A stretch of DNA of 64,000 nt from NCBI RefSeq assembly GCF_011745625.1, contig NW_027191472.1, positions 248,001 through 312,000 of the forward strand. Direction: 5' to 3'. Of the stretch, positions 4,031 to 21,084 are shown in pieces. The first letter of the stretch is position 1. Every line of letters begins with the position of its first letter. Source of the stretch: Cladosporium halotolerans (Eukaryota). The notes below the pieces were generated by a model that was not told the DNA's origin, did no database searches, and saw nothing but the letters and a program-made list of their open reading frames with translations. The position numbers and the translations under genes are program-made.

Positions 4031-7020
4031 CCCTCCTCATCCCGGCCTTCTCGAAGAGATTGGCGCGGGAGATAGCCTTCCGCTGCGCGGCCGACGTGAT
4101 CAGCCGCAGGGATGTCGCCGCGCGCTCCGCTCCCTCCCCTCACCGCGGGCAAACACGACACGAGAAAAAAGAAAGTGCTTACATACATACATTCACACAC
4201 GCACGCGGGCGGGCATGGATGCGCGTCCCGCCCGACTTTCTGACAGACGGACAGAAAGATGGACTGGGCCCACCAGCCCGCGGGCTCCACTCCTGCCATG
4301 TACGTACTGCTGCGACTGTACTGTTCCTGATCGGACGACGTGCATACGCCTGTCTCGAGTGTACACAGACGGCTGAAACGCGCGATCGCGAACCCCCGCG
4401 GGACCACTCAGAGGGCCCTTGGCCTTTGGGCCGCTGTGGAGCGGTTGCCGGCTTCGAAGCAGGGTGCAGATCGTGCGGTCTGGAAAAGACTTCAGGCTTT
4501 CGTGCGCCCGCGGGATCGTTCGACGTGGTGGGGCGATTCGCAGGGCAGGGCGGAATGGAAGGGGACGTTTGCGCTTGCTGATTAAGGGCATCGAACCTCG
4601 TTGCGAGCGCGGGATGATCGTGCTGTGCTGGACGGCTAAGCGGCGTGCGTGCGTGCGCGCGTGGGGATGGGTGAGATTGCTCTTGGGGTGTATTTTACAT
4701 TACAGGAGTCGTCGTGCGCGGTGCGACTGGTTCTGCGGGCGCGCGCTGGCGTGTGCTACGGAGGGGACATGGCACGGCGCCTTTCTTGGTTTGATGAAGT
4801 GCAGAACCTACATACATGCTGTCCCTGCGATGCGCATTGGGGACGTCAAACGGCCGGGGTGAAATGTCGGCATCCGGAGTCGTGTCCAGCGCGCGCGCAG
4901 AGCTGGGCCAACCATCGAGAGCCAATCTCGGCGTTCGCAGCACGCGCCGCCGCACGAATCTCTCTGGCTTCGGCCTCCCTATACCGGCTTGAGGCAAGCT
5001 CGCTCCCGGGTGCTGTTGCTGCAATTTTTCGCGCCCGGCGATCTTCGCGCCAACCTTCTGCGCGTCGTTTGTGGTTGATCTGCTACGCTGTGCGCGACTG
5101 GCTTTGGGGCTATTGGCAACGGTTTCTGCTCGCGTGGAGGCCGGAGGGCAAGTTCAGGCGAGGGCACGAGAGCGGCGGGAGAAGTCATCGCCTGGTGCCG
5201 GCGAGGTGTCGCGCGACCAGGACGGCATACCGCTCCGCAAGCAATACGAAGCGGTCGCTATGCTTCGCGTCCTTCCAAGGCAGGCGGGCAGTAAACAAAG
5301 AAAATGAGATGCGTCCACGCACGCTGCCATCTGACGTGCTGCGGCACTGCGGTTTCACCTGCATCGGCGGACACCGGCGAGTCGGCGGCCGACTGGCCGG
5401 GCAGATGGGCGCTGCTGCTGCCGGCGCTTGTGTCACTCGGACACGCAAACGTGTGTCGCTCAGGGTTCTTTCTGGGGGAGCGGGACAACGGGCTAGGTAA
5501 GGTGCTGCTGTGCGATGATGGAATCAGGCCCGTCGTCGTCGTCGCGGCCGGCGGCTGGCCGCATTAGCTCGCTGCGATCCTGCCTGCTTGTGGGCTCGAC
5601 CCCGCGCATCGTGACTCCCTGAGGCTAATAAGGTAGCAGCGGTAAGGCTTCAACTCCGGCGGTGCTGCGTGACTACCTACCTTACTCTCAGAGCGGCGCG
5701 CGCGTGCGCGGTGCAAGGGAGGCGAAATGCGCGGCGACACCGCAACCCACGGTCCGGCAGATCAACACGCGCGTCCGCACGCTCGCCACACCAGGCACTT
5801 GGGATGGCACCGCAGGCGCAGGAGAAAGCCGCAATGGCGCGCCCTGCAGCGTTCCTGAGGCGCAGCCAGAGGGCGCGCCAAAAGGCGCCCGGCAGACGCC
5901 CTCGCCACAGCGTTCAGAGACATGTGTGGTGTCTCAGAGCGCGAACCACGGCGCCCGACAAGGCCGCCGGTCGTCGCGCAGCCCCAGGTCTCCGGGCTCG
6001 CGCGAGCGGGCGCTGCTGGTCTGTAAGTTTCGGCAGGTCTCTTATCGCGGGCGTGCTATGGACGCTGCCACGCCTCTTCAGCGCTGTGGTAGGCTGGTGC
6101 TGGGACAAAGGCGTGACGGCCCTGCTGCCGCGCGCACGCGCTGTCTTACGACGACGGCGATGACGACGGGCACAGCGAGCAGCGAACGAGGGGGCGGCGG
6201 GCTCGTGGTAGCGCCGCGGGAGGTGCAGCAGCGCAGCAGCGCAGCAGTGCTACTGGTATCATGCGGCCGCGCTGTTCGGGGCAGCGCGGTGGAAGCAGTA
6301 ATTCGTTTCCGGCGAGTCTAGGTGGTGAGGGCAGCGGCGGGCGCGGCGCATCAATCTCTGTCCAAAGCTTGACTCGCAGGCTGCCCATCCCGGATGGGCG
6401 TCCGAAATGCTGCCATCCCCACGCCGTCGCATCCTCCAAGGGCTCCCACGCATGTAGCGTACCGCAGGCGCGTGTTCGCGCGGTCGTCGCTCGTGGGGCG
6501 GGCGAGACGCATCGCGGCCGGCCTCGTGGCGGCGCACGGCGTGCACCCTCAAGACCAGAGGCGGCGGCGGGCTGCTCACGAGGCTCACGAGGCGTGCGCC
6601 CGGCTCGCTGCGGCGGCGGCGTGTGTCCGTGAGAGAGCCATCCAGGCGTGTGCTGGGCAGTTAGGGTACCTTAGGCAGGCCTCTTCAGCGCAGGGCGTCG
6701 GCAATCTCTCGATCGACAGGCATCAAGCCAGGCGGGCCGGATCCACGTGCTGCGTGCGCGCCACTGCGCCTTCTAGCGCCAAGCGCACTGACGCGGCGTG
6801 CAGGGCACAGGGAGAGGTCGGCAGGAGGAGACGGCGGGCGCCGTGTGGGCGGAAGGGAGTGAGAGCGTGAGCGGTGGCAGCGGCAGCGGTTTGGCGGTCT
6901 CGCAGCAGCCAGCGGCGCCGCGGCTGCTGGGGCTTGCCGTCGCCCGTGCCAGGGTCTCCCCTCCTGCCCTCCTGCAGGCCTGGCCCACGCCGTTCGCTGC
7001 CATCCGCCGCCTGCTGGAGC

Positions 7021-7048
7021 ACTGGGCCACTGGGCCACTGGGCCACTG
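7021..7048. repeat. 8-bp tandem repeat (ACTGGGCC)x3
   Basis: actgggccactgggccactgggccactg, upstream of the BTB gene. Confidence 0.85.
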
Positions 7049-7379
7049 CGCCAAAGCTCGGCCTCTGCGCTCGTCGTCACTGCCGCCCGCCGGCCCTGCT
7101 GATCCTATATCATCGCCTGGCCGCTCCTCGCACGCCGCCTGCCCTCGCACGAGAGACCTCACACACACCACACACACCACACACGCCGACACACGCGCCC
7201 ATACCATCGACACAGACAATCGCCCACAGCGCCCCGCCTTATTCCCGCCTCCACCCCTGTCGCGGCTCCCACCCTCCACGCCCGTTACACGTCTGACGAT
7301 CCCCGAGCCCCGTCCAGCCCGTCGCTGCTGCACCTTCGGCTCTCCGCTATCAAATTGCGCGCAGACTCTGCCCGCCGCA

Positions 7380-8496
7380 ATGGCTTCCGCCGCGCGCAGC
7401 AACCCTCATAATGACTTGATGAGTGCTTTGTCGACGTCAGTACCCTCCCGTCAATTCCCACTCCTCCCTGCTCAACCACGGCTACACCTCCACAACCACC
7501 ATGGGCCGTACTTACATGCGCAACAGACTTCACCTCGGTGGCAAGTACTCCGATCTGACCATCACCTGCAACGACCGCCAATGGTCCGTCCACAAGGCCA
7601 TTCTGTGCTCCCGCAGCGGCTTCTTCGACGGCGCATGCAGCAATCGTTTTCGCGAGGCTGACACTGGCGTCATCGACCTGAGCGAGGATGACGAGGATGC
7701 AGTCGAGCAGATGATCCATTGTACGTTCTTCATGCAACATGTTCTGCGTCGCCGCCATGCACCCTGCACGCGCGACGTGCTTTCCCTCTCGGCCTGCGTC
7801 GACTGACACCTCACCTTCACAGTCTTCTACCACCTCGACTACTTGAACGATGAGACCGACCACGAGGCCTCGGCCGTCTTCCGTCACCGTCTGCTGTCCG
7901 ACGCCCGACGAAGACTTCCCAAGAAGGTCGACCTCACCCTGATCGAAGACCCTCTCCTCGCCCAAGCCGGAAACTACACCCAGCGTGAGCCTCAAATCGC
8001 CACTCCCATGACCCCTCCCGACTCCGCCATCTCCGTGAAGACCGACGTTCAATTCAAGAACAAGGTCAAGAGCCCACGATCCCCGCGCTCGCCCGCCCGC
8101 AGCCGCCAGCAAGCTTCGCCTTACCACTCCGAGGCCAACAGCGACTGCGAGTCCGACGAGGAAGAGGACGTCGGCGAAGAGGAGTCCCACCTCCTGCTCC
8201 ACACCCGTGTCTACGCTCTCGCCGAGAAGTACGACATCCCGTCTCTGAAGGAGGTCGCTCAGCAGAAGTTCGAGATGGCCATGGCCTGCTACTACGACTC
8301 GTCCGAATTCGCCGACGCAATCGAGGAGGTCTACTGCTCTACCATTGACTCCGACCGCGGCCTGAGGGACGTCGTCCTGCAGGCGTTCCGCTCTCACCCT
8401 GCGCTCGCCACGACTCAGGACGTGTACGCCGTCATCAAAGACACGCCCTCGCTCGCGTTCGAGCTCTTCAAGGTCGAAAGGGGTCTTCCGATATGA
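7380..8496 (+). CDS. BTB/POZ-domain protein (putative Cul3 adaptor), 3 exons: 7380-7435, 7527-7720, 7823-8496
   Basis: The spliced frame reads MASAARSNPHNDLMSALST|LHLGGKYSDLTITCNDRQWSVHKAILCSRSGFF...F(R)EA...IDLSEDDEDAVEQMIH|FFYHLDY...HTRVYALAEKYDIPSLK. These are classic fungal BTB motifs. Both introns are GT..AG with a CTTAC or CTGAC branch site and they preserve frame. Confidence 0.9.
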
Positions 8497-9138
8497 AAGA
8501 TTGCGACGGATTGATCCGGCATTATCTATCATCGTTTCGATCGACGCAGTTCCGTCGGTCTGGTGGCACAGTCAGTCATCACTTGCAGGTCATCAGGGTC
8601 ACATGACGCAAACAAAACACATTCAACCCGCACGACTATCGCCGCGGATTCGCTCCGCGACAATTGTCGCAAATCAAAAACCTCGCCACCTCACACCAGA
8701 AAGTGAGCATCAACCGGCGGCGACGGCAAACCAAAGCAACAAACGGCCGCAGAGACATCAGCACGCGGTCGCGAAATCTCGAAATCCATCTCTTCACATC
8801 ACATCAAATGGAGAAACGGTAACGGCAACAGCAACAGGGCATTTCGAAAGCAACACCAGAAAAAATGCATGGAGGCGTTAATTACGGGTTCTGTGGAAAG
8901 AACGGTCATGATACCCATTTTTTCGCACACGGTCGCCTTTTCTTCTTCACCCTCTTCTATTTTCCTTTCCCGCTCGCGCGGTCACTGTTGATCGGGGCCC
9001 GCGAGCGACGGCTGTTGGTCGTAGAGGCTTGGAGACACTTCGGAGCCTCTTTTTCTTTCTTTTTTTTCTCGTTGCATCTTTTGCCTTCAGGATCTAGAAA
9101 ACTGCATATCATAGCATCGAAGCGAATGAACAATCAGA

Positions 9139-11971: not shown

Positions 11972-13414
11972 TCAAACCTGCTGCTGCGCATTTCTCAAAG
12001 CCTCAAGATCCAGCTGCAGCGTCGCCACATCGACAACCTCCCCAAACTTGAACCCAACCCTCTCCAGCCTCCCGACACACTTGAACCCCAGCCTGGCGTG
12101 CAGCCTGCCCGTCGACAGCGTCTCAATCGCCTGCCCCGGTGCAATCGACATGGCCGCTAGAAGCTGCGTCTTCGTGCTGCCGACCACGAGTCGTTGGATC
12201 AGTGCCTCCAGCAGCCGCCGCCCGATTCCCCTGCCTTGCGCATCTGGGTGCACGTACACGCTGTCTGCGGCCGCGGGACGGTAGCCGGCGCGGTCGTTCC
12301 AGGGTGCGGCATAGGCGTAGCCGCAGACGGGTCCAGTGGGTGTGATGGTCGCGACGACGTAAGGCAGGTCGACGGCCGGTGAACGTGTCTGCTGGATTTG
12401 TGCGGCGGTCTGCGCCAGCGATGGGGCTTTTTCGGCGAGCGTGCTGATCGATGTGTTGACGTAGTGGGTGTAGATTTCTGCGATTTGAGGCGCGTCACCG
12501 GGCGTCGCGTCGCGGACTTCGATGTTGTCTAGCATGCTCGGGTTGCTCGGTGCTTCGGGTATGGCAGGATAGGGGTATAGGAGGGGTGCAGGCTGCTCGG
12601 CTGAAAGTAGAGCCTGTGTTTGATCATCCATTGATGAGCCCGGCTGAGTAGGCGTCTCTGGCGTTTCTGTCGGGTGTTCCTCCGCGTACTGCTTCTGTTT
12701 CTCCTTCAGTCGTCTGTAGTAAGTCGCAGGCGAAATGCCGGCTTCCTCCAAGAGTCGCTTGCGATCTGCCTTTCCTAGTGCTCGAGGTCCGCCATTCTCG
12801 TCATCAAGGAGGTCGTCCATGTCCTTCTTCGGCCTACCAACTGGCTTCTGCGGTCCCGGTGCTCTGGTGGGAGACTGTTTGCCCTGCTTCAGAGCTTCGG
12901 TCCTCTGCTGAATCCAACGATAAGCCTGCGCCTGAGCCGGACACCACTCTTCGTCTTGATGGGCTTGCACGAATGCTCGTAGCGGTTTGATGCCGTTCGG
13001 CTTGTCCCATTCCCAGAAGAAGATCGTCCGGTGAGGGGTCAGGTAATTGTCAGTCTCCGTGCGTGACCAATTGTTGCGGTGAAGGATGTCCCAAACAGTG
13101 CTGATGGCGGCCTTCTTGTTGTAGGTGTCTGACATATACTTGCATATGTCTTCCAGGTGGGCGTCGGGGTTTTCTTTCAGGTAAGCAAACATAGCCTTTT
13201 CCTCTTCCTCATTGAAGATCCGGGGCCGGCCTTTCTTGACGTCCTTGTTGATTGGAGGGCGTGGCATGCCGAAGAGTTGCCAGTTTTTGCGCCATTTGCG
13301 AACAGCGCGTTCGCCCACGTTGAATTCTTTCGCGATGGAAGGAACGTCTTTCTCCTCTACGAACAGGGCGTTGTGAATTTGCGCCATTACGGCGTCTGGC
13401 ATAGCGACAGGCAT
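11972..13414 (-). CDS. Chimeric protein: N-terminal IS630/Tc1-transposase-like HTH DNA-binding region plus C-terminal phosphinothricin/methionine-sulfoximine acetyltransferase-like GNAT domain
   Basis: Intronless 480-aa ORF. Residues ~20-118 (IAKEFNVGERAVRKWRKNWQLFG..GRPRIF..YLKENPDAHLEDICKYMSDTY..ISTVWDILHRNNWSR) match the fungal Tc1/IS630 N-terminus pattern. Residues ~298-470 (VRDATPGDAPQIAEIYTHYV..GYAYAAPW..YR..SVYVHPDAQGRGIGRRLLEALI..LHARLGFKCVG..VGFKFG..DV) match PAT/YncA-type GNATs. Confidence 0.82.
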   Translation of the reverse strand: MPVAMPDAVMAQIHNALFVEEKDVPSIAKEFNVGERAVRKWRKNWQLFGMPRPPINKDVKKGRPRIFNEEEEKAMFAYLKENPDAHLEDICKYMSDTYNKKAAISTVWDILHRNNWSRTETDNYLTPHRTIFFWEWDKPNGIKPLRAFVQAHQDEEWCPAQAQAYRWIQQRTEALKQGKQSPTRAPGPQKPVGRPKKDMDDLLDDENGGPRALGKADRKRLLEEAGISPATYYRRLKEKQKQYAEEHPTETPETPTQPGSSMDDQTQALLSAEQPAPLLYPYPAIPEAPSNPSMLDNIEVRDATPGDAPQIAEIYTHYVNTSISTLAEKAPSLAQTAAQIQQTRSPAVDLPYVVATITPTGPVCGYAYAAPWNDRAGYRPAAADSVYVHPDAQGRGIGRRLLEALIQRLVVGSTKTQLLAAMSIAPGQAIETLSTGRLHARLGFKCVGRLERVGFKFGEVVDVATLQLDLEALRNAQQQV

Positions 13415-14265
13415 GATGTATGCACGAGCACACGACGACTGCCAGGAAACGATTTTAATGGGTCAATCCGGCTTGATCAAGTCGAGATGAGATGGATCCA
13501 CCGGCCAGATCGATGGAGTTGATGGTGTAGCTTTCGTGATGCTGTGTGGCAAGCAGCGATGGCGACGCGTATATCTGCGCGTAGCCTGAGCCACCGCAGG
13601 CCAAAGCCGAGTCTGTCTACAGCAGGAAACGACCGTGAGAATGTGTCGATCGTGATTCTGCTCGTTGTCCAGTGGTCGCGTAACGTTTGGTGAGGGTTGG
13701 TTCTCGTTTCTTTTGAGAATGCGAAGCCGCGGTGAGGACGTGGAGTGGAGTGGAGTGACCGGGCCTTTTCCGGGCATCTCACGTGATCTCGGCGACTGCA
13801 CCGTGACCCTAACAACCCTAAGCCCTAATGTCGCAAAGCGAGCCGCGACGTCCTCGCATCACCTCAGCTCCACACGGACATAGATTATCCGACAATGTAG
13901 AAGCAGCCAAGACCCTGAAATAGTCGCATGCCGTCTCTTCACGACTCGCGGATATCCGTTTAACATGTGACCTCGAATAATGAAGATTGAAAGAGTTGTG
14001 AATCCAACACATCTAAGGTAGTCTACCTATCACGACAAGGAAACATCGGACTGTGACATTCCCACAAAGCGCCCCTACACTCCACGCACAGCTGCCCAAG
14101 AGAATCACTCCTACATAAATTCTTCTAGACCGTCAAAAACATAAACTCCTTTTCCGTATCGCACGAGTCGTTGTCCCCTGGTATCATATATCCGAACGCC
14201 TGCCCTAATGCGCTATCACGACAACACGACAAAACAGAAGAGACAGCAAGCTTCGCTAAACGCAC

Positions 14266-14997
14266 TCAAACATTCGCGCGCGAGTGCACTCGCGGCGCGT
14301 TGGTCGGCCGCCTTTCGACCTTGATAGGCTCGCTGTCGACGGCGAGCAACGATGTCGCGCCCTGCTGCGACGAGCCAGACGCTGGCATCTGCACCAGCGT
14401 GATGCGGATGCGATAAGAGCCGTACTGACGCACCAGCAGGCCGGGGAAGGTAAAGTAGCCCAGCGCTAAGCGGCACGGCTGGCTGCGAGCCATCGTTGCG
14501 ACGTGTTCCTCGGGGATCGCGTGCACGGAGTCGAACAGCTTCTGGCCTGTCAGCGAGCCGGATTCCACCGGTACGCGCTCGCCGCTGCGCGTGTCGGCCA
14601 CTAGCGAGGCGACGGCGAACAGGCGGCTGGTGTCGACGTGGCCGCTGTCGGCGGCGCGGTCGGCGGACGGGAAGCGCAGGCTGACCATCGCGGAGGTCTC
14701 GATTTCCATCCCGAGTGGGAAGACTCGCGGGGGCTGCCCAATGACATCGAGCTCCCACTTGGGCTTCGCTGGTGCCTCACCGCTTGGTTGGGCGTTGGAG
14801 GACTTTCGTCTGTGCCCGGAGTCGGACTTGGATGAGGACTTGTGACCAGAGGGTTTGCGGGAGCGTTTGCCGTCGCGATCCTCGGACGCACTGTCCTTCT
14901 GGTGTCGACGGGATGATGTCCGGGATTGGCCTGCATCGACGGCGCGAGGGCCGTGGCTGTCGTAGAGGTAGGTCCTCTGGCTACCGTCTGTGGTCAT
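14266..14997 (-). CDS. Small divergent velvet-like domain protein with a basic, low-complexity N-terminus
   Basis: Good start context (aacaacATG). The C-terminal domain WELDVIGQPP..LFAVASLV..SLTGQKLFDSVH..GYFTFPGLLVRQYGSYRIRITLVQM..SEPIKV resembles the velvet consensus (QQP..L.G..F.F.DL.VR..G.YRL.F.L..S.PF.V). Confidence 0.65.
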   Translation of the reverse strand: MTTDGSQRTYLYDSHGPRAVDAGQSRTSSRRHQKDSASEDRDGKRSRKPSGHKSSSKSDSGHRRKSSNAQPSGEAPAKPKWELDVIGQPPRVFPLGMEIETSAMVSLRFPSADRAADSGHVDTSRLFAVASLVADTRSGERVPVESGSLTGQKLFDSVHAIPEEHVATMARSQPCRLALGYFTFPGLLVRQYGSYRIRITLVQMPASGSSQQGATSLLAVDSEPIKVERRPTNAPRVHSRANV

Positions 14998-17941
14998 GTT
15001 GTTCCGAGGTGGCGGGGTTGCTAGCGTTGATACGATGGCTCCGGGATGATGCCGGACTGACAGGAAACCAAGGTGTTTGAAGGTAGATGGTGATTGGACC
15101 TCAATGCCACTTGCTGGTACAATAGGGTTCTGTGTTCACGTAAGTCTGCGTTTCAAGCTGAGTCGACGGAAGCATTTGCAGGACGTACACGCAGCAGGTG
15201 TGGGCTCACAAGGCGGGTCGGAGTCGGAGAGAGCTCTTGATGTTCCTGCAGTGGGAGGCTGGCGGGCTGCAGTTTGGTTCGGGGATTCAAGCTAAAACTT
15301 GGTCCAGAGCGAAAAGGCGATGGAGGGCGACTGGTCTGAGGATCCGGTCGAAATACGCGGCCGGCAGTTGACTTTAAGTACCTACAACTGAGTCAACAGT
15401 CTGCCTCTTTCAGGCAAAGGATATCATCCTCTCCAGACGTGAGGGCATACCACTTCTCAAACTATTCGTTAGCGCAGCCGGGGAAACGGGATCCGCGCCA
15501 CGATGGCGACATGTTCGACATGTTCGACATGAAGGGCTATTAAGGGCTACGTTGGACCAGCGTCGCCAAACAGGTGTCAACCCCTGTCCTGTAGCGAATG
15601 CCAACCCGATTAGAGAGAGCTGCAGACATAGGCAAGCGGCGGGCGATGCCGTGTGGCATGGGGTCTTCAGCGTTTGGGCCCATTGGCGCGCCCCGGGGAG
15701 CCCTAGATTGATGGAGGCGCGGGTGGATGTCACGATCGGAGACCGGAAATGGACCACTGCGTCGGGCCTCAGCAGGATCTCTCTGGAATCTGTTGGCGCT
15801 CGCTTGCGCACAGCCGAACCACTCAGCCGGCGCCGATCGATTGAGTGCGCGGCGTCATCTGGTGAGATGCTCTGTGAAGGGATACGAAGTGTACGGGACT
15901 GTGGGTGTGTGGGCAAGGAGCAGCGTCGGAGGGTAAGCCGCAGACTATTGATTCGGGCCCGTGGTGACTGGCATCCGTCGGAGTGATGGGTGCTGAGACA
16001 GCAGGCTCACGTGGACGGCGAGGCAGCCCAACCCCCACGAGGTGCCCTTGTGGTGATGGGCGCGCGAGCGACAGGGGAGCGTTCGGGGCCGGCCGTGGCC
16101 CGCGAGCCGGACCCCGAGGATCTCCAGCCTGACACCGGCACGGCGGGCGCTGGAATGGCCCGCGCAACTCTATTCCAAATCTCGGCAGCGCGTGGCGGCC
16201 CTGCCAGCGCCTATCGAATCAGTTCCGATCCAGGCCACCGTCTCACCCGCCCGCGCCATCACCGCATCTTGCAGGCACCAGGCCGTAGGATCCCGGCAGG
16301 GGCCCGCCGAGACGATGCGCTCGAGCACTTCCAATCTGCGTCGTGGTGAGTGCTGTATCAAGGAGCGTCTGGCGCCCGGCCGCCTGCATCGCACTATAAT
16401 GCCTGCTCTGCTCGGGAGCTGCGGCGGGCCCACTTGCTAACCCGAAGAAGGCCTCGCACCCTCATCGCGCCTCGACTGCACTATGTATTTGACATGTAGC
16501 CTGCACTGTATCTTGTCCGGCGCGTGCAGACACAGATCATTGAGTCCGGCTCCCTGCCCGGCCCATCCCCCGAGCTAATCTGATCTGCAACCTGTCACTT
16601 TAAACTTTCCTCTCAGCTCCGTCCGCACTGCGCCAGCGCCATAGAGCTCACAAAGACACGCCTCGGTCGCGCCCCGAGGTTTGCACGCCTGCATGACATC
16701 CTGCGCCAATCCCGTCGCCCACAGTGCTGGGCGCGGCAGCCGCGGTAGCGATGCGCCAGCGCCGCGAGCACGGCGCCTGCAGCTGAGCGTTTGCGTGACC
16801 TAGGGTAACTCGGATCGAGCGCCCTCGTGCTGATTTCATTTACCCCATCTGATCACGGCTGATTGCCTCATGACGAGATGCGCGCCTGCAGGCCTGTCTA
16901 GATCAGATCGAGTCGATGAGCTGTGGTACAACAACCGAGTGCCGCGGAGTTCCCTTTTGAACCTTGCTTGCGTTGCGCGGCATGCAGCTGCTGCGATTGA
17001 GCGTCAGCAGAAGGAATGTTTAGGGCAGATTGTGTTGTTCCTCAAGTAAGGTGAGAGGCCATGCCACCGGGACGCCCGATCAGGGGCTGACTCCGTCTTC
17101 GCTGCGGGTGGCATTGTTGGCATGCCTTCTGCCCTACATGCAACTCGCCTTGCGCTGAGCCTGCTGGGACGCACGGCGATCTCGATTCTTGTGCATCCTG
17201 CATCCACGCCTGCGGACACGGCATGACATAGGCACGCTAAAGGTCAGCGCCGGCTGTATGTGCACCGATCGAGCACATGCGTACGCGGCTGGGGAGCAGG
17301 CAAGCGGCGGCTGAAAACCCTCGGTCAGCGTCTGCGGCCGCAACAGACGCTTTGCAGGAGACGGCTTTGCTGGAGATATGCAGATGCGTGCGAGAAATGG
17401 GCGATGCAGCCGCGGCGGCTTCGGGTGTCGTCACAGGTGCAGAAGGGCACGGCGTGGCCGATCGGAGTCGGCTCGGAGCGAGCGAGCATCATTCCGAAAC
17501 GTGAATATAACTCTCGTCGGCGTCTCATGCCCGAGGAATCCTAATGGTCTTGCCGCGAAGCCGTCGTCTCAAGCGGATACCTGTATGTACCTGTCGCCGA
17601 AAGAGGAAGCTCAAACATCGAAAGCTTGGCAAAACACTACGGCTAATTTGAGGAGCAAGAGAAATCCTCGTCAGACTCCGAGTCCCCGTTTTCTCCAAAC
17701 GAGTCGATTGATTTGACTGCGTCTGCGAGATGTAGATGAGATGAGATCATATCTAATCGCAAGATCTAATCGCCTTCACCCGGGCCGTGCACGCGCTGCT
17801 CCTGCGGCACGCGTTTCTGGGGAAGCTGGAAGTTTGGCGTGGTCAAGGAGCGAGCACCTTGAAGGCCAACGTACCACTTGGAAGTCGTCCAATCGTCCAG
17901 AGACGTGGCTCGCATACCACGACCGCTCACTTCGCACCATC

Positions 17942-20900
17942 ATGGCCCGACTCGGGCGCATGGGCTTCCTCGCCCTCGCCGTCGTTTTCCACGTCATCTA
18001 TGTCTTCTCCATCTTCGACATCTATTTCGTAAGCCCGATCGTCACCGGTATGCGGGCCTTTGGCGTCGATACGCCGAAGGCTCCCGCGAAGCGATTGGTG
18101 CTTTATGTCGGTGTGTAGAAGATTCGCGCATTATGTTAGCTCTCCACCATCTGACCGTAATCAGGCGATGGCCTCCGCGCCGACAAGGCTTTCCAGTACT
18201 TCCCCGATCCTTCGCCTGAAGACCCAAACGATCCCGCTTCGCTCGAACCCCGCCCATTGGCACCCTTCCTCCGATCGCGAGTCCTTGAGCATGGCACATT
18301 CGGCGTTTCGCATACCCGCGTACCCACGGAGTCTAGGCCTGGACACGTAGCCTTGATCGCAGGCTTGTACGAGGATGTATCGGCTGTCACAACGGGTTGG
18401 AAGTTGAACCCCGTCGACTTCGACAGCGTCTTCAACAGGAGTAGGCATACGTGGAGTTGGGGCAGTCCGGACATCCTGCCTATGTTCAGCACGGGCGCTG
18501 TGCCTGGACGGGTGGAAGACTACACCTACGGCGCGGAATTTGAGGACTTCAGCAAGGACGCCACGGAGCTGGACTTCTGGGTTTTCGATCGCGTCAAGCA
18601 ACTCTTCAAGGATGCCGAGACGGATCCGGAGCTTGATGCGCGGTTGAGGCAAGACAAGCTGGTGTTCTTCTTGCATTTGCTTGGACTGGACACCACTGGA
18701 CATGCGTACAGACCGTATTCGAAAGAGTACTTGCACAACATCAAGATCGTGGATGAGGGGGTCAGGGAGATCACAGAGCTGATCAATAGCTTCTACGGAG
18801 ATGACGAGACGGCTTTCGTCTTCACCGCGGACCACGGCATGAGCGACTGGGGCAGCCACGGAGATGGACATCCGGACAACACAAGGACGCCACTGATTGC
18901 GTGGGGATCGGGTGTCTCGAAGCCTGTCACAGCCGCTGAAGGCAAAGCTCCTGGGCATGAAGATGGATTCTCGAGCGACTGGCATTTGGATCATGTCAAG
19001 CGTCATGATGTTGCGCAAGCTGACATCGCAACCTTGATGGCGTACCTCGCCGGGCTGGAGTATCCAGTGAACTCGGTGGGCGAACTGCCGCTATCGTTCA
19101 TTGACTCGGACGACAAGGAGAAGGCTAAAGCTATGCTTGTCAACGCGCGCCAGATCTTGGAGATGTATCGCATCAAGGAGGAGCAGAAAAAGGCCACCGA
19201 ATTCCGATACAAGCCGTACCACGGCTTCGCGAAAGCCGAACAGACCGTCGACCACCGTCTCTCGTTGATCGAGCAGCAGATCCAGGACGGCCACTACGAC
19301 GAAGCCATCAGCAGCTCAGATGAGCTCATGCAACTGGCGCTCCAGGGTCTTCGCTACCTTCAGACCTACGACTGGCTTTTCTTGAGAGCGTTGATCACAA
19401 CAGGTTACCTCGGCTGGATCGCCTTTGCTTTCACCACAGCCGTTGACTTACATATGCTGGGCGGCAAGGTCGAAACATCGCGGACCAACACTAGCATTGT
19501 CGCATTTACCTCGTTTCTTGTCCTTTTGTACAGCTTCCTTTTCGCTCAGTCTTCGCCACCCCAGTATTACGCTTACGCCTTCTTCCCGGTCATGTTCTGG
19601 GAGGAGGTATATGCTAGGCGACAGGCCTTGGCGGAAGGCAAGAACAAGCTCTTTTCGAACTTCGAGAAGAGCGACACGATGAAGTTCAGCCTCAACCTTG
19701 CCTTGTATATCGGCATCTTGGAAGTCATGGTAAGCTCAGAATGAACACTTGCTACACATTACGCACGCTTACCATCGATTCATAGGTCCAAAGTTATCAG
19801 TACCGTGAAGTCTACACAGTGTGCTACCTTCTCGCCACTGCATGGCCGTTCTTCTACGGAACTGGATTCGTCCGGAAGAACTGGGTCCTCTGTAGCACAT
19901 GGGCTTGCGCCTGTACTGCTATGAGCATATTCACGCTTCTGCCCGCCATGAAAGTTGAAAGCGCCGGCCTCATCCTTCTTGGCGGCTTGCTCATCTTGTT
20001 GGTCGGAGTTTTGTACGTCCTACTTGAGAAGAGCCTGCTCGTACAAGCTGCTCCTGGAAAGGCTGGTCTTGCCTCGAACAAGGCGGACGGGATCTCTCGC
20101 ACCATTATGGGTGTGCAAGTCGGACTCGTCGCTTTGGCAATGTTGGTCACCCGTTCCAGCGTGAGCTCGCTCCAGGCGAAACAAGGCCTGCCGCTTGGTA
20201 CCCAAGTGGTTGGATGGGCGACTCTGATTGCCTCTCTCGTGGTGCCTTTCCTTCACGCGCTCCAGCCGCAAGACCACTACCTTCACCGCCTCGCAATCAC
20301 CTTCCTTGCGTTCGGCCCTCTCTTCGTCATCCTCACCATCTCCTACGAAGGCCTCTTCTACTTCGCCATCGCAATCACCCTCCTCAGCTGGGTCCGCCTC
20401 GAGCACCGCATCCACCAATCCTTCTCCTCACCAACCCCCCTCCCCCAACCCACCGCCAACGGCTCCGCACTCAAATCCGAACTCACAACCCCCCTCTCCC
20501 CCGCCGCCACCGCGGCCAGCACCCGTGACCGCGCCCTCCAAACCGGCGCCTACCGCTCCCTCACCCTCTCCGACGCCCGCATCTGCCTCTTCTTCCTCTT
20601 CCTCCTGCAGTCCGCCTTCTACAGCACGGGCAACATCGCCTCCATCTCCTCCTTCTCCCTCGACGCCGTCTACCGCCTCATCCCCATCTTCGACCCCTTC
20701 AGCCAGGGCGCCCTGCTCGTCCTCAAGCTCCTCGCGCCCTTCGCGCTCGTCTCTGCGAATCTGGGTATTCTCACGAAGCGCTTGCGCCTAAGGGGCGGAA
20801 GCTTGTTCGCGGTCGTTATGGCGATCGGAGATTATTTGACGCTGAGGTTCTTTTGGGAGGTTAAGGACGAGGGGAGCTGGTTGGAGATTGGAGAGAGTAT

Positions 20901-21084
20901 TACGAAGTTTGTTATTGCGAGCTTGCTTTGCATTTTCGTCGCGGGGCTGGAGGGCATTAGTGAGTTGTTTGTTAGGGGTGTGGAGTTTGCTGATGAGCAG
21001 GAGGGGGTTCTTGGGAGCAGTAGTGCTGGGGAGGGCGATAGGAGGGCTAATGGTGGGGTTGGGGAGGTGAAGGGCGCGGAATAG
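17942..21084 (+). CDS. MCD4: GPI ethanolamine phosphate transferase 1 (PIG-N), exons 17942-18110, 18165-19729, 19786-21084
   Basis: Motifs SIFDIYF.SPIV, RLVLYVG|DGLRADK, SHTRVPTESRPGHVALIAGLYED, HLLGLDTTGH, TADHGMSDWGSHGDGHPDNTRTP, a multi-TM PigN C-terminus, TGNIASISSF and EGSWLEIG. Introns are canonical. Confidence 0.97.

Follow-up and report, generated by a model that had tools for sequence, protein, structure and literature searches.

A stretch of 64,000 nucleotides from Cladosporium halotolerans (NCBI RefSeq assembly GCF_011745625.1, contig NW_027191472.1, positions 248,001 to 312,000; hereafter called the window) carries on its minus strand a gene for a protein made up of two tandem bipartite helix-turn-helix (HTH) modules, a disordered linker and a GNAT domain of the PAT/YncA/ArsN1 family, PAT being phosphinothricin acetyltransferase. 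It is a host gene with a single fixed locus, a domesticated fusion of transposase DNA-binding domains and a GNAT, and not a mobile element. To judge from homology, the two HTH modules go back to the N-terminal DNA-binding regions of two distinct lineages of DDE_3 (Tc1/IS630-type) transposases, one each. So far the Cladosporium gene has been annotated only as 'hypothetical protein' or with the IMG label 'YncA/transposase'. That it is a domesticated fusion of this kind had been proposed in the initial annotation of the window, and the proposal stands: both halves are under purifying selection, synteny is kept, and the open reading frame (ORF) is intact in eight of eight complete loci. The function that we favour, with a confidence no better than even, is that of a DNA-binding regulator dimerised by its GNAT, which would sense a ligand or acetylate weakly.

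The ORF (Table 1) consists of 480 codons with no internal stop, in agreement with the single intronless frame described at the outset. All features listed in the initial annotation were found, and Pfam matched HTH_23 in the N-terminal half and Acetyltransf families in the C-terminal half above their gathering scores. The one part that fell is the description of the stretch after the first HTH as unrelated sequence, as this is a second transposase-type module. In a model of the full-length protein the predicted local distance difference test score (pLDDT) is mostly above 90 in the first module (module A), below 50 at residues 251-290 and 90-98 in the GNAT. The second module (module B) is less confident in this model, probably because three module-B fragments align poorly in the input alignment.

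Two transposase-type heads

Module A matches Pfam HTH_23 at residues 24-49 with 25.5 bits (gathering score 24.6), and HTH_32 at residues 38-111 with 33.3 bits, slightly below the gathering score of 33.7. The NCBIfam model for an IS630 transposase aligns to residues 20-140 with E 7.4e-11, its 42 bits being far under the cut-off of 100. The transposase-type bipartite HTH with a GRPR linker that had been claimed for this region is supported by the HTH_23 match, and both the KKGRPR stretch and the ...STVWDILHRNNWSR end are present. GRPR is kept in most orthologues and degraded in P0277, the most divergent one. The model of module A contains six helices, at residues 7-19, 24-30, 35-48, 69-81, 87-98 and 104-113, which form two three-helix bundles.

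An exhaustive phmmer search of 1.84 billion representatives, using residues 1-245 as query, returned 84 proteins at E<=1e-3. All but 12 of these cover only the first module (residues ~1-121), ten cover only residues ~122-242, usually beginning near their own residue 14-17, and both modules are matched only by two orthologue clusters. The switch in homology is abrupt, with the relatives of module A (lineage A) stopping at residue ~121 and those of module B (lineage B) beginning at ~122. The N-terminus of the lineage-A relative P0018 is 40% identical to module A (E 3.9e-20), and P0018, P0024 and P0032 run on into Pfam DDE_3 with 47.1, 97.7 and 109.5 bits, respectively.

A profile search for lineage B gave 27 matches, among them the full-length proteins P0101, P0102 and P0103 (413-421 amino acids). 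Their N-terminal ~135 residues align to module B and are followed by the motifs HWTDE, EDGDPSH and SPDLNPIE, which we take to be the DD(D/E) triad of Tc1/mariner transposases. After the module-B region these proteins carry DDE_3 at 37.6-44.4 bits (gathering score 28.6). No Pfam match is found in lineage-B proteins within the region they have in common with module B. Residues 122-240, far from being unrelated sequence, are thus homologous to the N-terminus of a second DDE_3 transposase lineage. The additional basic motif GRPKK and the short HTH-like segment GISPATYYRRLK pointed out earlier are both present, and in the alignment GRPKK falls on the GR(P/K)... motif that the lineage-B transposases carry. 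The identity of the two modules to transposase N-termini is 30-47%.

Modelled alone, module B reaches a mean pLDDT of 84.1, its six helices falling into two bundles of three, which the GRPKK-bearing segment connects. Foldseek searches with this model gave no match at E<=0.001; the top rows, all with E>3, were the DUX4 double homeodomain, engrailed and the Mos1 transpososome. The best VIA-align scores were Z 5.5 for homeodomains and Z 4.7 for a Tn3 resolvase HTH, both below the level that is meaningful for helical models. In the ESM Atlas the nearest clusters are HTH_28, HTH_23 and HTH_Tnp_IS630 at 0.81-0.83, which is below the 0.9 level and makes them leads only. As the structure searches are weak, sequence homology and position, and not fold matches, are the basis for assigning module B. 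A profile-profile alignment of the two transposase lineages paired their bipartite regions, including the GRP motif, with E 0.0073 and a probability of 5%, which is no evidence of kinship between them.

Heads of the same types occur in other proteins. P0031 (754 amino acids) has an N-terminus homologous to residues 24-121 of module A, followed by a complete linalool dehydratase/isomerase (Ldi; E 4.6e-111), and is a further fusion of a transposase head and an enzyme. P0026 (747 amino acids) is built of a unit of ~47 residues, matching the second half of module A (HTH_32), which recurs ~10 times in tandem, and is thus a repeat array of transposase-type HTH units. P0111 (350 amino acids) combines module B with a phosphohydrolase domain of the HD type (Pfam HD, 29.3 bits). 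In P0020 (230 amino acids) module B is followed by a Cys-rich C-terminus, ...CSTCRRRKAKV, which resembles the start of a Zn2Cys6 cluster and has no Pfam match. P0111 and P0020 suggest, at the level of sequence, that the module B head was captured repeatedly. P0105-P0110 (235-271 amino acids) make up a conserved family, with clusters of up to 22 member sequences, in which module B is followed by a short stretch that aligns to transposases, without the HWTDE motif and without DDE_3. These proteins may be a separate domesticated or truncated derivative.

A GNAT domain without the general base of its family

Pfam places Acetyltransf_4 at residues 301-462, and Acetyltransf_1 and Acetyltransf_7 match as well, all of them above their gathering scores. 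The best solved relative is the phosphinothricin N-acetyltransferase 9igk_A (E 2.2e-23, residues 297-468). The initial annotation was accordingly right in recognising a full GNAT resembling phosphinothricin acetyltransferase. The best NCBIfam match is ArsN1b (E 7.5e-31), whose 107.1 bits are to be read against an equivalog cut-off of 210; ArsN1a reaches 62.2 bits (cut-off 170), and PPT_acetyltrans 72 bits with E 4.7e-20 (cut-off 300). Homology thus assigns the GNAT by descent to the PAT/YncA/ArsN1 lineage, but it lies below the equivalog cut-offs and lacks the general base.

This loss was found in an alignment of 50 fusion-clade sequences and 121 stand-alone relatives, the latter being 119 retrieved matches (P0122-P0240) plus P0016 and P0017. 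At the general-base column all 49 fusion-clade sequences with a residue there have Ala (Ala383), and the stand-alone relatives have Glu (120 of 121) or Asp (1 of 121). The family spacing Arg-x2-Tyr-x4-Glu-x-Thr-x-Tyr maps to Arg375, Tyr378, Ala383, Ser385 and Tyr387, and His137 of BAR corresponds to His439. Arg375, Tyr378, Tyr387, His439, Gly396 and Gly398 are conserved in 49 of 49 fusion-clade sequences. The two glycines are also kept in 121 of 121 stand-alone relatives and belong to QGRGIG at residues 393-398, which fits what we take to be the definition of the acetyl-CoA-binding motif, Q/R-x-x-G-x-G/A after strand beta4. Residue 384, next to the lost base, is Asp in 28, Asn in 20 and Ser in one of the 49 sequences; as it varies, there is no conserved substitute for the base. 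Two positions on the substrate side differ as well. The equivalent of BAR Lys78 is Asn in 47 of 49 fusion-clade sequences, and residue 339 is Gln in the fusion clade and Arg in 118 of 120 stand-alone relatives.

The roles of these residues are known from BAR. Glu88 is reported to be the general base there, and its replacement (E88A/Q) strongly lowers the activity on phosphinothricin and aminoadipate, while the activity on tryptophan is above that of the wild type (bioRxiv 10.1101/122184). The same study describes an oxyanion hole made up of His137 and Tyr107, with Ser133 positioning His137; Lys78, Arg80 and Tyr83 are supplied by the adjacent monomer, and Thr90 and Tyr92 hold the amino-acid group (bioRxiv 10.1101/122184). 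In ArsN1 the position of BAR Glu88 is occupied by Asp85 (PMC6465285).

The closest stand-alone relatives, P0122-P0124, are 46-47% identical to the fusion GNAT and keep the Glu. They have a 5-residue insertion in common with the fusion clade, and among the stand-alone relatives it is found in these three only. A quick maximum-likelihood tree with 129 rows unites the fusion clade and P0122-P0124 in a single group, with a support of 96 in the Shimodaira-Hasegawa-like approximate likelihood ratio test (SH-aLRT); this group sits inside otherwise mostly bacterial-looking PAT relatives. A search with P0122 against one genome each of 185,579 prokaryote species gave no close relative, the sole match being 34% identical. 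It is therefore probable that the GNAT came directly from a eukaryotic stand-alone gene, likely a fungal one. The initial annotation had suggested a comparison with bacterial YncA/PAT to look for a horizontal origin. A recent bacterial origin of this half is not supported, since the stand-alone proteins nearest to it lack close counterparts in prokaryote genomes; that the group goes back to bacteria at an earlier time is possible.

Modelled as a homodimer, residues 291-480 scored 0.84, compared with 0.00 for the best of three controls; this result may reflect a memory of solved PAT dimers on the part of the model. Among 30 proteins whose solved structures are pairs of one chain, 20 attain the mark used for such models, as against 1 of 23 whose structures are single chains; for eukaryotic proteins the counts are 17 of 29 and 0 of 30. 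At least 98% of the contacts agree between runs, and the pLDDT of the partner is at least 92. The modelled interface includes residues 372-381, which bear Arg375 and Tyr378.

A fixed host gene and its surroundings

A word-indexed search gave 16 matches, among them the identical protein and nine full-length relatives of 467-535 amino acids with 73-78% identity and 98-100% coverage. Named members of the clusters are each a 'hypothetical protein', from Cladosporium fusiforme and C. inversicolor. P0277 (512 amino acids, 69% identity), the most divergent full-length orthologue, has all the parts. A scan of metagenome contigs added ten orthologous loci. In eight of eight complete loci an intact ORF of 476 amino acids with identical start and stop is found, and in the remaining two of the ten the frame is still open at the end of the contig. 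Since L002/L003 and L005/L006 are near-duplicates, about five independent lineages have been sampled.

The possibility that the fusion is an artefact, be it an assembly chimera, a decaying pseudogene or read-through of two adjacent genes, is very remote. Some database gene calls do begin at an internal Met and give products of 276-279 and 388 amino acids, but most of the short calls are on short contigs, down to 1.2 kb. The ORF is uninterrupted in all complete loci from other assemblies, and contigs from three other sequencing runs cover it colinearly with no joint, in two of the runs as one piece. A fourth run, probably the source of the sequence, contains the window in full. The contigs of these four runs extend over intergenic DNA too and look genomic, so they bear on the assembly and not on transcription. 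As the junction is spanned by independent contigs, the objection that the initial annotation had foreseen, an assembly chimera in place of one gene, falls away. The ratio of nonsynonymous to synonymous substitution rates (dN/dS), far below 1 in all modules, and a linker that stays in frame despite changes in length also speak against an artefact.

The dN/dS estimates are simple Nei-Gojobori counts with many saturated pairs; they exclude pairs with more than 97% protein identity and, for the C-terminal regions, the truncated loci. The mean proportion of synonymous differences (pS) is 0.63-0.69, so that synonymous sites are near saturation in most pairs of loci. The proportion of nonsynonymous differences (pN) is 0.089 for residues 1-121, 0.036 for residues 122-240 and 0.077 for the GNAT. 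Median dN/dS is 0.047 for module A (computable in 24 of 52 pairs), 0.020 for module B (40 of 52) and 0.047 for the GNAT (32 of 33). In the four closer pairs (pS 0.33-0.59) the values are 0.032-0.073, 0.008-0.065 and 0.035-0.064, respectively. Purifying selection is thus strong on each of the three folded modules, and no part of the protein is more conserved than module B. The values of ~0.01-0.07 in all three modules bear out the expectation of a ratio below 1 in both halves.

The linker differs in this respect, with pN 0.356 and a median dN/dS of 0.278 (21 of 33 pairs; 0.07-0.53 in the four closer pairs). Its length is 50 or 53 residues in the loci, longer insertions are found in some orthologous proteins, and the frame is always kept. 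This fast change within a maintained frame argues for translation and against an intron or spacer. An intron was ruled out, as the linker is open and in frame in all orthologues despite the saturated synonymous divergence.

The upstream neighbour is common to 8 of 8 loci, and the downstream neighbour to 5 of 5 loci with enough flank (tblastx). Terminal inverted repeats flanking the ORF, the lack of which had been remarked on initially, are indeed missing, the repeat searches giving only chance-level matches of 14-31 nucleotides. No DDE family was matched in the protein by Pfam or NCBIfam. In tblastn searches with eight transposases of both lineages the fusion gene was matched by their N-terminal parts only, and no other copy or remnant of a catalytic domain was found in the window or in the ten orthologous loci.

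These results bear on the idea that the protein controls transposons, its modules binding the terminal repeats of the two parental Tc1-like lineages and silencing the elements or their relics. The GNAT would then be an effector or a dimeriser, and the idea is compatible with the regulator reading favoured here. In its favour, the two modules have their homologues in the DNA-binding N-termini of separate DDE_3 transposase lineages, and the joining of two heads would make sense if both element families were targets. Repressors that consist of the DNA-binding domain of a transposase are a known principle, an example being the KP repressor of the P element. Such a role is nevertheless unlikely. 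Neither copies nor relics of the two lineages were found in the window or in the ten orthologous loci, the modest identity of the modules to transposase N-termini means that target specificity has probably drifted, and purifying selection as strong as this between species would rather be expected of a regulatory role in the host.

As for the immediate surroundings, the Velvet match of the upstream neighbour amounts to 24.6 bits, slightly below the gathering score of 25. The long frames that make up the downstream neighbour have no Pfam match. The search for conserved non-coding motifs near the fusion gene gave one block of 24-32 nucleotides at ~14177-14207 and none downstream; the block adjoins the end of the Velvet-like gene and is conserved in four loci. 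Contigs of a strain with ~97% identity end at 13720 and 13789 and restart at 14030, so that strains differ in the intergenic DNA upstream of the fusion gene.

Within ~12 kb of the fusion gene no biosynthetic-cluster genes were recognised by Pfam. This counts against the protein being an enzyme that detoxifies an antimetabolite similar to methionine sulfoximine, phosphinothricin or arsinothricin, with HTH modules that are autoregulatory or vestigial. The best family matches, ArsN1b and phosphinothricin N-acetyltransferase, and the best solved relatives, which are PATs, do point in that direction. On the other hand, the scores are far under the equivalog cut-offs (107 against 210 and 72 against 300) and the general base is lost. 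Nor are the HTH modules vestigial, since they are constrained at least as much as the GNAT, and module B more than any other part. Taken together, we consider detoxification quite improbable.

Table 1. Features of the fusion gene and of its neighbours in the window.
Feature	Position	Strand	Basis or remark
Whole ORF	11972..13414	minus	480 amino acids plus stop, no intron needed
Module A, residues 1-121, bipartite HTH of a Tc1/IS630-type (DDE_3) lineage	13052..13414	minus	Pfam, homology, model
GRPR motif, residues 62-65, linker between the two helical bundles of module A	13220..13231	minus	sequence
Module B, residues 122-240, second bipartite HTH, other DDE_3 lineage	12695..13051	minus	homology, model
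GRPKK motif, residues 193-197, linker between the two bundles of module B	12824..12838	minus	sequence
Linker, residues 241-293, variable, disordered	12536..12694	minus	pLDDT <50 for residues 251-290
PAT/YncA/ArsN1-type GNAT, residues 294-480	11975..12535	minus	Pfam, NCBIfam, PDB, model
Ala383 codon, position of the family general-base Glu (BAR Glu88)	12266..12268	minus	alignments
Upstream neighbour, weakly Velvet-like, outside the fusion gene	14170..15860	minus	Pfam Velvet E 2.9e-5
Downstream neighbour	~6680-8525		strong tblastx matches in 5 loci
PLAA/Doa1-like gene (WD40, PFU and PUL domains), housekeeping	1-2423	minus	Pfam
PIG-N glycosylphosphatidylinositol (GPI)-ethanolamine-phosphate transferase, housekeeping	18161-21084	plus	two frames, presumably split by an intron

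Proposed function and relation to known systems

In the proposed mechanism the protein would be nuclear and bind DNA through its four HTH units. The GNAT would form the symmetric homodimer typical of its family, giving a dimer with four HTH pairs that may bind specific DNA. Its pocket would still bind acetyl-CoA and/or a glutamate-like amino acid and acetylate poorly or not at all. With binding kept and little catalysis left, the domain would serve mainly for dimerisation and ligand sensing in a transcription regulator, as a eukaryotic analogue of a bacterial one-component regulator. The initial annotation had left the choice between a metabolite-responsive factor and a DNA-targeted acetyltransferase, and the Ala at position 383 in every sequence of the fusion clade favours the former over an efficient acetyltransferase.

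The second of these would be an active enzyme, brought by its HTH modules to specific loci. Its substrate there would be a protein of chromatin or of transcription, or else a small molecule, and the role of the Glu would fall to a different base or to a chain of waters. We give this a smaller, though appreciable, chance. The acetyl-CoA motif, the oxyanion His439, Arg375, Tyr378 and Tyr387 are kept throughout the fusion clade, dN/dS of the GNAT is ~0.05, and the two altered positions on the substrate side (the BAR Lys78 equivalent and residue 339) could mean a new substrate. That BAR E88A/Q keeps, and even gains, activity on tryptophan can be cited in its favour as well (bioRxiv 10.1101/122184). 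Against it, the acidic base is invariably present in the stand-alone relatives, its loss strongly cuts the canonical reaction of BAR, and no conserved acidic substitute adjoins Ala383. In addition, the family is known for acting on free amino acids and not on proteins (bioRxiv 10.1101/122184, PMC6465285).

Several points weigh against the regulator that we favour. Expression as one mRNA is presumed from the continuous ORF under selection alone, and DNA binding by either module is likewise presumed, in this case from homology. The fold searches with the module B model gave weak matches of homeodomain type (best Z 5.5, Foldseek E>3). The strong conservation of the acetyl-CoA motif and of the substrate residues suits a working enzyme equally well, and many GNATs function without a dedicated base. 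Loss of the general base is no proof of inactivity, the E88A/Q variants of BAR, with their raised activity on tryptophan, being a case in point. Finally, the internal Met294 is kept in 10 of 10 loci that reach this position and is Leu in P0277, the most divergent orthologue; separate translation of the GNAT from it is conceivable.

A more far-reaching version of the regulator reading is that the protein is a one-component transcription factor built entirely of captured parts, with two transposase heads and a pseudo-enzyme GNAT that reads acetyl-CoA or a glutamate-like amino acid. This version is put forward tentatively, and we would sooner bet against it than for it. If true, central nitrogen or acetyl-CoA status would be coupled directly to transcription in Cladosporium. 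Seen alongside the Ldi and HD fusions, it would suggest that the conversion of enzymes into metabolite-sensing regulators by transposase heads is a recurrent event in fungi.

Host genes are known to have given rise to new transcription factors by capturing the DNA-binding domains of transposases, a route documented mainly in animals. The present gene would add an old and strongly selected fungal case, the stacking of heads from two transposon lineages, and a small-molecule acetyltransferase stripped of its general base as the partner domain. As one defined substitution divides the fusion clade from 121 stand-alone relatives, it is also a tractable model of the change from enzyme to sensor. In the full-text literature outside subscription journals no description of a fusion between a transposase DNA-binding domain and a GNAT, or of this Cladosporium gene, was found. 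A paper on the capture of Tc1/mariner HTH domains by F-box genes contains none of the words 'acetyltransferase', 'GNAT' and 'fungi' (PMC12062965).

Among known systems, the gene is first to be compared with captured transposases of animals, in which a transposase DNA-binding domain and a host enzyme or effector are likewise found in one ORF. SETMAR is a SET methyltransferase joined to a mariner transposase, and vertebrate transcription factors that arose by transposase capture are built in the same way. The Cladosporium gene resembles these in being immobile, under purifying selection and restricted to one lineage. Unlike SETMAR, where the whole transposase is kept, it retains the DNA-binding heads only. 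It further differs from SETMAR and the vertebrate factors in having two tandem heads from two transposase lineages, a filamentous fungus as host, and as partner a GNAT of small-molecule type without a general base.

Compared with fungal Tc1/mariner-IS630 (DDE_3) transposases, the protein has the bipartite HTH region with a basic GRP(R/K) linker twice, but is without the DDE/DDD domain, without terminal inverted repeats and confined to a single fixed locus. Paired-domain proteins and proteins derived from CENP-B/pogo are host DNA-binding proteins with a bipartite HTH from a Tc1/pogo-type transposase; these have one transposase-derived DNA-binding region and are not known to carry a GNAT.

The GNAT half has its counterparts in BAR/PAT, YncA/MddA, PA4866 and ArsN1, with which it has in common the GNAT fold, the acetyl-CoA motif, the Arg-x2-Tyr and Ser-x-Tyr positions and the oxyanion His, and the predicted symmetric dimer would use the same loop as PAT-family dimers. 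It differs from them by Ala in place of the general-base Glu/Asp, by scores below the equivalog cut-offs, by the 5-residue insertion and by ~290 N-terminal residues of DNA-binding modules and linker. Bacterial one-component regulators consist of an HTH fused to a small-molecule-binding domain. By analogy, the protein proposed here would have a DNA-binding head and an enzyme-like ligand-binding domain through which it dimerises; unlike the bacterial regulators it is eukaryotic and assembled from transposon parts, and its function is a predicted one.

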